Positions 13,426 through 57,759 of a stretch of 64,000 nucleotides of DNA are shown piece by piece (position 1 is the stretch's first letter; each line of letters opens with the position of its first letter). A program made the translations under genes and the position numbers. Below the pieces are notes generated by a model. It saw nothing but the letters and a program-made list of their open reading frames with translations. It had not been told where the DNA came from and did not search any database. The stretch lies in NCBI RefSeq assembly GCF_058153355.1, contig NZ_CM177019.1. One strand, 5' to 3'.

Positions 13426-14355
13426 TTACTTCTCTTTCCCGCGCCCGTGCATTTCCTGAAACAATTTACCGACCTCAACAAAATAATCCGTCAGTGAGTT
13501 GATCACGACCTGTACCTTCAGCGGCAGCTTATCTTTTTCGGTATACAACGCATAAACCGGGCGTGGATCTGACTGGTAACGTGGCAGCAGGATCTCGAGT
13601 TCCCCGCGATTGATCTCGTTGATCACCCACATCAGCGGCACGTAGGCGATCCCAGCGCCTGCAGTCAGCCAGCGCACCAGCGTCATCGGATCATTAGTCA
13701 CAAATCTCCCTTGCGGGATCAGGCGAGTCGAGATCCCTTCCGGTGCGATCAGTTCAAATTCATTGTCGGGCCGCACGCTGTATTCAAGCCATGAATGGCT
13801 ACTTAAATCGGCGGGTTTTTCCGGTATGCCGTATTGTGTGAGATAGCTTTTTGCGGCGCACACCACCATTGGCATCGCGCCCAGACGGCGGGAAAACAGG
13901 CTGGAATCTTGCAACGCGCCGACGCGGATCACCACATCCAGACCGTCGGCAATCAGGTCGGGGGCAGGAATTCCGGTAACCAGATTAACGCTCAAACCTG
14001 GGTATTCTTTCAGCATTTTGGCTGTTAGCCCGGCGAGAACATTTTGTGCCATAGTTGAAGAACAGCCAATGCGCAGCGTCCCGATGGGGGTGTTATTGAA
14101 GGCATACAGTTGCTCATGAACATCCTGCACTTCATGAAGCATCCGACGGCAGCCCTGGTAGTAAATTCTACCGGCTTCGGTCAGGCCAATGCTGCGTGTG
14201 CTACGGTTTAACAGCTTTACCTGCAACTCATCTTCCAGTTTTGACACCGTCTGACTGATGGACGAAACGCTCATCTGTAGCTGTCTGGCGGCGGCGGTAA
14301 AAGAGCCAAATTCAACTACTTTGGCAAACACCGACATGCGTTTTAGTCGTTCCAT
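13426..14355 (-). CDS. aaeR: LysR-family transcriptional activator AaeR
   Basis: 309-aa ORF with N-terminal HTH (MERLKRMSVFAKVVEFGSFTAAARQLQMSVSSISQTV); divergent from aaeXAB. Confidence 0.9.
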   Translation of the reverse strand: MERLKRMSVFAKVVEFGSFTAAARQLQMSVSSISQTVSKLEDELQVKLLNRSTRSIGLTEAGRIYYQGCRRMLHEVQDVHEQLYAFNNTPIGTLRIGCSSTMAQNVLAGLTAKMLKEYPGLSVNLVTGIPAPDLIADGLDVVIRVGALQDSSLFSRRLGAMPMVVCAAKSYLTQYGIPEKPADLSSHSWLEYSVRPDNEFELIAPEGISTRLIPQGRFVTNDPMTLVRWLTAGAGIAYVPLMWVINEINRGELEILLPRYQSDPRPVYALYTEKDKLPLKVQVVINSLTDYFVEVGKLFQEMHGRGKEK

Positions 14356-48229: not shown

Positions 48230-48954
48230 GTAAAAGCCGCTTAACGGTGTTTAGTTTCGTTCGCCGTTTTCTTCTACGGTTAATGGTTGTCCTCGCCATT
48301 TTCTGGGGCGGGGGCATCGCGTTGTTTAGCGTTGCGCCTGTTCCTTTCTCAGCGGTAATGGCCGAGCGACAAGTCAGCGCCTGGCTGCATGGCAATTTTC
48401 GTTACGTGGCACATTCTGACTGGGTCAGTATGGATCAAATCTCGCCGTGGATGGGACTGGCGGTGATTGCCGCAGAAGATCAGAAGTTTCCTGAGCACTG
48501 GGGCTTTGATGTCGCTTCCATTGAGCAAGCCCTGGCGCACAACGAGCGCAATGAAAACCGTATTCGCGGCGCATCAACGATTTCTCAGCAAACAGCCAAA
48601 AATCTCTTTTTATGGGATGGACGTAGCTGGGTACGAAAAGGGTTGGAAGCCGGATTAACGCTGGGGATAGAAACAGTCTGGAGCAAAAAGCGTATCCTGA
48701 CGGTTTACCTGAATATCGCCGAATTTGGCGACGGTGTGTTTGGCGTCGAAGCTGCGGCACAACGTTATTTCCACAAACCCGCGAGCAAACTTACCCGGTC
48801 GGAAGCTGCGTTACTGGCTGCCGTATTACCTAATCCACTGCGTTTCAAAGTCTCCGCGCCATCGGGCTATGTGCGTAGCCGTCAGGCGTGGATTTTACGG
48901 CAGATGTATCAGTTAGGCGGTGAGTCGTTTATGCAACAACACCAGCTGAATTAA
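48226..48954 (+). CDS. mtgA: Monofunctional peptidoglycan glycosyltransferase MtgA
   Basis: 242-aa ORF with transglycosylase motifs ([21 protein letters not shown]); start overlaps elbB stop. Confidence 0.9.
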
Positions 48955-49583
48955 GCTTCGCGCGAAGTGAGGGCCAGCGTTTTGCTCTCACGTGGTTGCA
49001 GATCTTTCTGTAGGGCAATAGCCAGTGCCGGCTGGGCGATAAACCGTTTCCATAACCGCTCTTGCTTTCGCTGACAACACCACTTTGACCAGGTCGCCAG
49101 TGGAATCAACGTGCTTTCACCAATGTTGTCGCAGACGACGGGGATAACCTCTGACTCACTGATGCGGTGACAGAGGATATTCTGCGGCTTCAACGACATC
49201 GTCACGATATGGTTATCCTGCAAATAACGTTTCAGCTGTTTCAGTAACTGGCGCAGCTGTGCAACGTCTTCTTCGTAACGGCATTGTTCTGCAAATTCGG
49301 TCAGCGTAACGGAGGGCTTACCGTCGAAATCGGCAATCACATCGTAGACATAACCCGTTCCGCAATCCGTCTCCACGGTACCGTGATAGCGCGGTATTCC
49401 ACTCCAGTCTTTTAACCGGCGACCAAGATGCGCGTAATACTTTAACTCACGGCGGATCTCTTTATCACCACCATCACCACGGTGGTAGACAATCTTGATA
49501 CAGCGTTGGGCATCTTCCGGATGCGCATAACATTTCCGATGTCTTCCGGTGCCCAAGGGATTTTGTTCAGATAAGCGAATCAT
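48951..49583 (-). CDS. yrbL: PhoP-regulated protein YrbL
   Basis: Canonical start [33 protein letters not shown] inside ORF-track frame 48951-49640; 210 aa; the longer frame would swallow the PhoP box. Confidence 0.8.
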
Positions 49584-49632
49584 ACCATCTCTTGGAAATA
49601 TTTTCTGACGATCTCCAGTATGGTCGAATAAC

Positions 49633-49650
49633 TTAAACAAAACCTAAACA
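49633..49650 (-). promoter_or_regulatory. PhoP box (direct repeat TGTTTA-N5-TGTTTA) in the yrbL promoter
   Basis: Minus strand reads tgtttaggttttgtttaa about 50 bp upstream of the yrbL start; matches the PhoP-box consensus. Confidence 0.55.
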
Positions 49651-49795
49651 ATGCCTCTTAAGGTTTTCTTAAGGTTCTTCTGAAAGTGAAAAGCGCACAA
49701 AATGTACAATTTCCGTCATTAATAACGATTTCAGTACGCGCTTTTTTTATTGTCGGGGGGAGCTTGAAGGGATTTGTATGTCAAAGTGATGAAAA

Positions 49796-50068
49796 TTAAT
49801 CTTCATCAAAACCAGAGTTAAAGAGGGCGATAACGGCGGCCAGTGCTTCCTCTTCCTGTGGACCGGTCGCTTCGACTTCAATCTGCCGTCCTTTGGCAGA
49901 ATCCAGCATCAGCAGCGCAATAACGCTGTTGGCTTCAGCTTCAGTGCCTTCATCGTTACGTAACAGCACTTCAGCGTCAAAACCCTGCATTAATTCAAAC
50001 AGCTTCATTGCAGGCCGGGCATGCATGCCCAGCTTGTTTGTGATTTCAACAGTTTGCTTGACGGTCAT
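49796..50068 (-). CDS. ptsO: Phosphocarrier protein NPr (PTS-Ntr)
   Basis: 90-aa HPr-like [33 protein letters not shown]... Confidence 0.9.
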
Positions 50069-56781: not shown

Positions 56782-57759
56782 TTATTCAACGAGTATTGGC
56801 GATAACCAGTACAACATCGCCAGCCATACGATAAATCCGCCAGTTAATAATACCCCTACACCACGGCCTGGTTGCGGGGAGCGCCGCCAGCACAGCAACG
56901 CAAAAATAATGCTCACCAGCAACATCACGCTGTAGTCACGACTGTACGCCAGTGGATCAATCTCTCCAGGCGTTATCAGCGCGGGTAAACCCAACACGAT
57001 GACAATATTAAAAATGTTTGCGCCAATGATATTCCCGACAGCAATGTCGTTTTCACCTTTGCGAACCCCCGCGATTGCGGTTGCCAGTTCTGGCAGACTG
57101 GTTCCGATAGCGATTGCCGTCAGACCCATCGTCAACTCGCTGATGGCAAAGTAATTCGCCAGCACCGTGGCGTTATCAACCACCATCCGCGTGGCCACTG
57201 GCATGATGATCAGCGCAATGCCGAGCCATAAAAACGCGACGGGCAATCCGCCTTCACGCGGCAGCTCTGCAAGCTGCTCTCTGGTCAGGCTGTCAGTCCC
57301 CTGACATTCAGCCAGACGTGCAAGTTTAACAATGAACAGCAGCCATAGCACAGCCAGAAAGAGGAGAAAGATACCATCGCTGCGACTAAGTTGTCCGTCA
57401 TAGAGTACGGAACCGGCCACTACACTGACCAACAACATTAAGGGTAATTCGCGGCGCAGAACATCGGAATGGACGGTAAAAGGACGTACCAGCGCAGCCA
57501 GACCGAGGATCAGCAAAATATTGATAATGTTTGATCCGAGGGCTACACCAACGGCTAAATCGCGTTGTTCGTGCAGTGATGCGGCAAGCGAAACGATGAT
57601 TTCTGGTAACGATGTGCCAATACTGACCACCGTCATGCCGATGATCAGTGGCGGTATGCCAAAGGATCGGCAAAGAATGGACGCGGCAAATACCAGGCGG
57701 TCGGCACTGTAAACGACCAAAAGTAAACCAACAATTAACAGTGCCGTAGCTAAAAGCAT
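56782..57759 (-). CDS. yrbG: Na+/Ca2+ exchanger-family inner-membrane protein YrbG
   Basis: 325-aa polytopic membrane ORF with duplicated GTSLPE motifs. Confidence 0.85.
   Translation of the reverse strand: MLLATALLIVGLLLVVYSADRLVFAASILCRSFGIPPLIIGMTVVSIGTSLPEIIVSLAASLHEQRDLAVGVALGSNIINILLILGLAALVRPFTVHSDVLRRELPLMLLVSVVAGSVLYDGQLSRSDGIFLLFLAVLWLLFIVKLARLAECQGTDSLTREQLAELPREGGLPVAFLWLGIALIIMPVATRMVVDNATVLANYFAISELTMGLTAIAIGTSLPELATAIAGVRKGENDIAVGNIIGANIFNIVIVLGLPALITPGEIDPLAYSRDYSVMLLVSIIFALLCWRRSPQPGRGVGVLLTGGFIVWLAMLYWLSPILVE

Follow-up and report, generated by a model that had tools for sequence, protein, structure and literature searches.

A PhoP box upstream of Escherichia coli yrbL and the choice between a 210- and a 229-residue product

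We analysed a 64,000-nt stretch of DNA (contig NZ_CM177019.1 of assembly GCF_058153355.1; hereafter the window), and consider it very probable that its yrbL gene has a PhoP-dependent E. coli promoter of the architecture I, or class II, type and that the TTG at 49640, which opens a longer reading frame, is not a start codon. This is the npr-yrbL-mtgA region of E. coli; a 951-bp query around the site matched 5,425 of 5,426 complete E. coli genomes, with the match falling on these three genes. RefSeq names the product 'PhoP regulatory network protein YrbL'. The features of the region are collected in Table 1.

Table 1. Features at and upstream of the yrbL start, in window coordinates
Feature	Position	Strand	Remarks
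yrbL coding sequence	48951..49583	(-)	210 aa + stop; PF10707 YrbL-PhoP_reg, protein-kinase-like
Shine-Dalgarno AAGAG	49589..49593	(-)	AGGAG in K-12 and all other Escherichia examined; A at 49592 private to the window
Inferred transcription start	49612..49616	(-)	About 49614 (leader about 31 nt); position transferred from Salmonella S1 mapping
-10 hexamer CATACT	49617..49622	(-)	11 nt downstream of PhoP box; same hexamer and distance assigned in Salmonella yrbL (PMC3335776)
PhoP box, direct repeat TGTTTA-ggttt-TGTTTA	49634..49650	(-)	12/12 to (T/G)GTTTA-N5-(T/G)GTTTA; same orientation as yrbL; overlaps -35 position
TTG opening mechanical 229-aa ORF	49638..49640	(-)	Inside PhoP box; not a real start
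PmrA/BasR-type box CTTAAGGTT-tt-CTTAAGGTT	49657..49676	(+)	Inverted relative to yrbL; 6 bp upstream of PhoP box
Conserved block TTGTACATTTtGTGCgCTTT	49690..49709	(-)	20 bp; about 40 bp upstream of PhoP box, about -126 from ATG

On the minus strand, positions 49650-49634 read TGTTTAggtttTGTTTA, with the two TGTTTA hexamers at 49650-49645 and 49639-49634. Continued to the gene, the order is ccttaagaaaaccttaagaggcat, TGTTTA, ggttt, TGTTTA, agttattcgac, CATACT, ggagatcgtcagaaaatatttccAAGAGatggt and then ATG att cgc. The ATG of the product beginning MIRLSEQ occupies 49583-49581 and is separated from the PhoP box by exactly 50 nt (49633-49584). The repeat that the earlier note had placed about 50 bp upstream of this start is thus present to the letter. 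TGTTTAN5TGTTTA had one exact match on both strands of the 64-kb window, the PhoP box itself, and none in 100 dinucleotide-preserving shuffles, which confirms the repeat at these coordinates as real and far beyond chance. Allowing up to one mismatch to KGTTTAN5KGTTTA gave three matches in the window against 0.75 expected; the two additional ones (13542-13558 and 57724-57740) are on the minus strand within long open reading frames, and their number is close to chance. No second PhoP box was found in the npr-yrbL spacer at up to one mismatch. We compared orthologous loci from five further Escherichia genomes, E. albertii and four Citrobacter, with loci added via homologous proteins from Salmonella, an 82%-identical Escherichia, Siccibacter, Pluralibacter, Superficieibacter, Erwinia sp. 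and Cedecea and an extra copy in Enterobacter hormaechei. The position of the PhoP box was kept in 15 of 16 genomes, representing 8 genera.

The surrounding sequence has the layout of an activator-dependent promoter. CATACT is unchanged in 12 Escherichia and Citrobacter genomes, and its 11-nt distance from the PhoP box (49633-49623) is invariant among them. The sequence of this spacer and parts of the leader vary freely, while the hexamers and CATACT stay in position in the same 12 genomes and in Salmonella, Siccibacter, Superficieibacter and the Enterobacter copy; a fixed distance between box and -10 across freely varying sequence is the pattern of a promoter and not of coding DNA. The hexamer at the -35 position is TAGGTT, which is given for Salmonella with four mismatches, and a promoter scan of 49400-49900 found no sigma-70 consensus promoter, as expected if transcription depends on an activator. 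The sequence features of an architecture I, or class II, promoter are all found here: a direct repeat, a single direct box 11-12 nt from the -10 and no recognisable -35.

The distance from the -10 hexamer to the ATG is 33 nt here and 34 nt in Salmonella. By transfer of the mapped Salmonella position, we infer that yrbL transcription in this strain starts at about 49614 with a leader of about 31 nt. The Salmonella +1 lies just 2 nt past the assigned -10, which is unusually close, so the start or the -10 assignment may be off by some bases. Any plausible transcription start still falls more than 20 nt downstream of the TTG at 49640, and the mapped Salmonella start corresponds to a position about 25 nt downstream of it. 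The TTG is upstream of the 5' end of the transcript and is not a start codon.

The leader has some further properties. Most of the stretch GTCAGAAAATATTTCCAGGAG (49584-49611, minus strand) is conserved between Escherichia and Citrobacter, and part of it in Salmonella and Enterobacter, which exceeds what a ribosome-binding site by itself would require. Across the start codon, GGTATGATTC followed by G (49576-49586, minus strand) fits the G-10 Y-1 G+1 consensus of the elemental pause. The 'yrbL consensus pause element' serves as a standard model for studies of RNA polymerase (PMC11260103), and promoter-proximal pausing close to the start of yrbL has been shown (PMC12709180). A figure of the 5'TNET-seq paper displays a yrbL start.

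The 229-aa frame exists only because the 57 nt leading from the box to the ATG happen to be free of stop codons; by our own arithmetic, the chance that 19 successive codons contain no stop is about 40%, (61/64)^19. The TTG of this frame (49640-49638) combines the final base of the spacer with the TG that opens the second hexamer; two codons before it, a TAG in the same frame (49646-49644) stands in the first hexamer. The PhoP box therefore straddles the putative start. The earlier note had argued that the frame from 49640 would put the promoter element inside coding sequence, which is correct for the second hexamer, as well as for the -10 hexamer and the transcription start, and incorrect for the box as a whole. 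A TTG in the second hexamer just past an in-frame TAG marks the 19-codon extension as an artefact of open reading frame listing. Between the TTG at 49640 and the ATG at 49583, the frame has no further ATG, GTG or TTG.

The would-be extension, which includes MFKLFDHTGDRQKIFPRDG, does not behave as protein in comparisons. It differs radically between Escherichia lineages (LFDHTGDRQKIFPRDG versus LSPHTGGSQKKPPGDG), with all substitutions non-synonymous, whereas YrbL residues 1-12 are nearly invariant in the same comparison. Escherichia sp. MOD1-EC7003 lacks the TTG. In E. albertii and C. amalonaticus the frame meets a stop 15 codons before the ATG and offers no other start. The 210-aa form scored 232.6 bits against PF10707 (cut-off 31.5), with profile positions 1-184 of 185 aligned to residues 2-185; the N-terminal extension lies outside the model and adds nothing to the score. 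Among 24 aligned homologues, none has a conserved 19-aa extension. The enterobacterial sequences in this alignment all begin MI.LS at the same column, and the distant ones are at most four residues longer, save for two isolated cases with longer, unrelated N-termini.

A 229-aa form could also be made from the TTG at 49640 if transcripts arrived from further upstream, in which case the PhoP box would double as coding sequence. Candidate sources are read-through from the rpoN-hpf-ptsN-rapZ-npr operon or an unmapped upstream promoter; no strong intrinsic terminator between npr and yrbL was found in the window, and ribosomes could in principle meet the TTG on transcripts that read through from npr. 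From 49640 onward the frame is open, and an AAGAGG stands 12 nt before the TTG (anti-Shine-Dalgarno duplex of -5.8 kcal/mol), but this spacing exceeds the usual optimum. Given also the radical change of the extension between lineages, the loss of the TTG or interruption of the frame in relatives, homologues that lack such an N-terminus and the single PhoP-dependent start seen for Salmonella yrbL, we regard production of the longer form as very unlikely.

The 210-aa product favoured by the earlier note thus agrees with RefSeq, the PF10707 boundary, the N-termini of homologues, the comparative sequence and the Salmonella start. The note had further held that the PhoP box settles the choice of start. 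The start it arrived at is right; no settling was needed, however, since the databases already use it, with RefSeq giving yrbL as 633 nt and 210 aa in both K-12 MG1655 (b3207) and the closest genome.

The Shine-Dalgarno sequence of this strain is unusual. The predicted duplex with the 16S tail goes from -7.4 kcal/mol for AGGAG to -4.5 kcal/mol for AAGAG. An exact match to 49572-49625 occurs in 0 of 5,398 complete E. coli genomes, the best having one mismatch; a private mutation and a sequencing error are the two explanations for the A at 49592. A gene caller relying purely on ribosome-binding sites could be misled by the weak AAGAG when compared with the AAGAGG upstream of the TTG (-5.8 kcal/mol). 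The weak Shine-Dalgarno leaves the 210-aa conclusion unchanged, since the TTG is off the PhoP-dependent transcript and the extension is unconserved.

That yrbL is activated by PhoP through this box, as the earlier note had suggested, is backed by published experiments on the same or an orthologous site. The Shigella flexneri yrbL site, the 19-mer tTGTTTAggtttTGTTTAa, is identical to the window sequence and was shifted by PhoP-P in EMSA, and deletion of phoPQ reduced yrbL mRNA to 0.02, a drop of about 50-fold (PMC5775216). Salmonella yrbL heads the list of architecture I promoters, which their authors regard as class II promoters, with a box that overlaps the -35. Its single direct PhoP box, TCGTTTAGGTTTTGTTTAA, is followed after 11 nt by the -10 hexamer CATACT (PMC3335776). 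PhoP gave a DNase I footprint at this promoter, and S1 mapping revealed a single start, dependent on PhoP and on low Mg2+, with a leader of 32 nt (PMC3335776). Among PhoP targets, yrbL is the earliest to be transcribed (PMC4196223).

In the mechanism that we propose, low Mg2+ or antimicrobial-peptide stress would cause PhoQ to phosphorylate PhoP, and a PhoP-P dimer would bind the direct repeat TGTTTA-N5-TGTTTA (49650-49634). The repeat would stand in for a -35 element, 11 nt upstream of the weak -10 CATACT (49622-49617), and RNA polymerase would be recruited. The transcript would begin at about 49614, with a leader of about 31 nt carrying the Shine-Dalgarno, and translation from the ATG at 49583 would yield the 210-aa kinase-like YrbL. 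PmrA acting at the adjacent PmrA/BasR box (49657-49676) would repress the promoter, and PmrA itself would be activated via the PhoP-induced protein PmrD.

The notion that the TGTTTA repeat is an A/T-rich coincidence without a regulatory function has practically nothing left to stand on: intergenic DNA does give short hexamer repeats by chance, and the window's two further matches, each with one mismatch, are about as many as chance would give, but the exact repeat arose in none of the 100 shuffles, its position and phase are kept across 8 genera, and EMSA, footprint and expression data published for an identical or orthologous site have already refuted this reading.

The sequence, its uniqueness in the window, the spacing, the conservation, the family boundary and the annotation come from the present analysis, and PhoP binding, PhoP dependence, the Salmonella start and PmrA repression come from the papers cited. 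The PhoP box, the class II geometry, the counter-regulation by PmrA and the 210-aa start are all already published or in RefSeq. A reader with only the letters recovered a textbook PhoP site and rightly used it against a spurious long open reading frame, which is of value mainly for quality control.

Immediately upstream is a PmrA/BasR-type box that had gone without remark in the earlier note. The PmrA consensus is a direct repeat, YTTAAK-N5-YTTAAK. Positions 49657-49676 read CTTAAGGTTttCTTAAGGTT in full, a perfect 9-bp direct repeat with an 11-bp period, and this is the one match to the PmrA-type pattern in the window, against 0.09 expected. The box is kept across genera. Known E. coli PmrA/BasR sites begin CTTAAGGTT (PMC10729948, PMC8004244), and the yrbL promoters of both E. 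coli and Salmonella bear PhoP and PmrA sites (PMC2681069, PMC3335776). Repression of yrbL by PmrA has been published (PMC3335776, PMC4196223, PMC2681069), and the box accounts for it. Consistent with this repression, in the transcriptome of E. coli B adapting to iron, yrbL is down whenever basR, eptA and arn are up (PMC13405929).

Further upstream, no element in the entire npr-yrbL spacer is conserved as well as the block TTGTACATTTtGTGCgCTTT. Its position relative to the ATG, fixed at -125 to -128, is shared by 14 of 16 genomes of 8 genera, including the non-syntenic Enterobacter copy, and the block occurs once per E. coli genome. We found no annotation or published mention of the block; Rfam gave no match to it beyond a sub-threshold chance hit to a snoRNA, and a terminator scan returned nothing there. 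We considered whether the block is the 3' arm of an npr terminator. It pairs with the upstream GCGC...GTAC in this strain, but this 5' partner is unconserved in K-12 and other genera, and in several genomes a distinct terminator is found at a more upstream site, so this candidate was rejected. Comparison by eye with consensus sequences for RstA, OmpR, CpxR, PhoB, ArcA, the MarA box, sigma-54 and sigma-E produced partial matches and none that was convincing; the TACATTTTG of the block, for instance, is common to an OmpR site. We tentatively suggest, as a possibility that we hold to be on the unlikely side, that the block may be the site of a third, undescribed regulator of yrbL and, separately, that the change at 49592 could lower YrbL translation in this strain. 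Only two items merit a specialist's glance: this unexplained block and the weaker ribosome-binding site that is private to the strain.

YrbL relatives also turned up elsewhere. A 420-bp contig labelled Tannerella forsythia ATCC 43037 (NZ_JUET01000135.1) codes for a product with 96% identity to YrbL residues 1-129, and is most likely E. coli contamination of the Tannerella assembly. Homologues with about 50% identity are found in contigs from gut metagenomes (L022 601-1775; L023 601-1221) in another context, adjoining dnaE and LPS-core genes (a Kdo kinase family gene and Wzy_C) and in one case as two YrbL-family genes that converge. Such a gene context hints at a link between the YrbL kinase-like family and LPS.

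The closest known system is yrbL of E. coli K-12 (b3207), a member of the Mg2+ stimulon and PhoP regulon, which has the same PmrA box, PhoP box and -10, the same gene order (ptsN-rapZ-npr-yrbL-mtgA) and the same annotated 210-aa product. In the roughly 110 nt that precede the ATG, the window and K-12 differ at four bases (49711, 49629, 49592 and 49584). Between the PmrA box and CATACT the sole difference is at 49629, in the spacer between the PhoP box and the -10 (T here, A in K-12); those at 49592 (A here, G in K-12) and 49584 (T here, C in K-12) fall in the Shine-Dalgarno and just before the ATG. The coding sequences are 95.3% identical in nucleotides and 97.6% in amino acids. We also considered whether this yrbL is an unusually divergent allele and rejected the idea: its 95.3% compares with about 97% for the neighbours, a mildly elevated divergence that is mostly synonymous (25 synonymous versus 5 non-synonymous codons).

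The Salmonella enterica yrbL promoter likewise has a single direct box 11 nt from CATACT, a similar leader and a PmrA box directly upstream. Its first hexamer is CGTTTA where the window has TGTTTA, and its leader exceeds the one predicted here by 1 nt. Binding and the transcription start are experimental results for Salmonella and predictions for this strain. The site in Shigella flexneri 2a 301 is the same 19-mer, with no difference at the level of the box (PMC5775216). The canonical class II promoters mgtA and phoP also have a single direct PhoP box in place of the -35, roughly a helical turn upstream of the -10, at a spacing of 12 nt compared with 11 nt in yrbL. They are under PhoP alone, whereas yrbL receives an added input from PmrA (PMC2681069).
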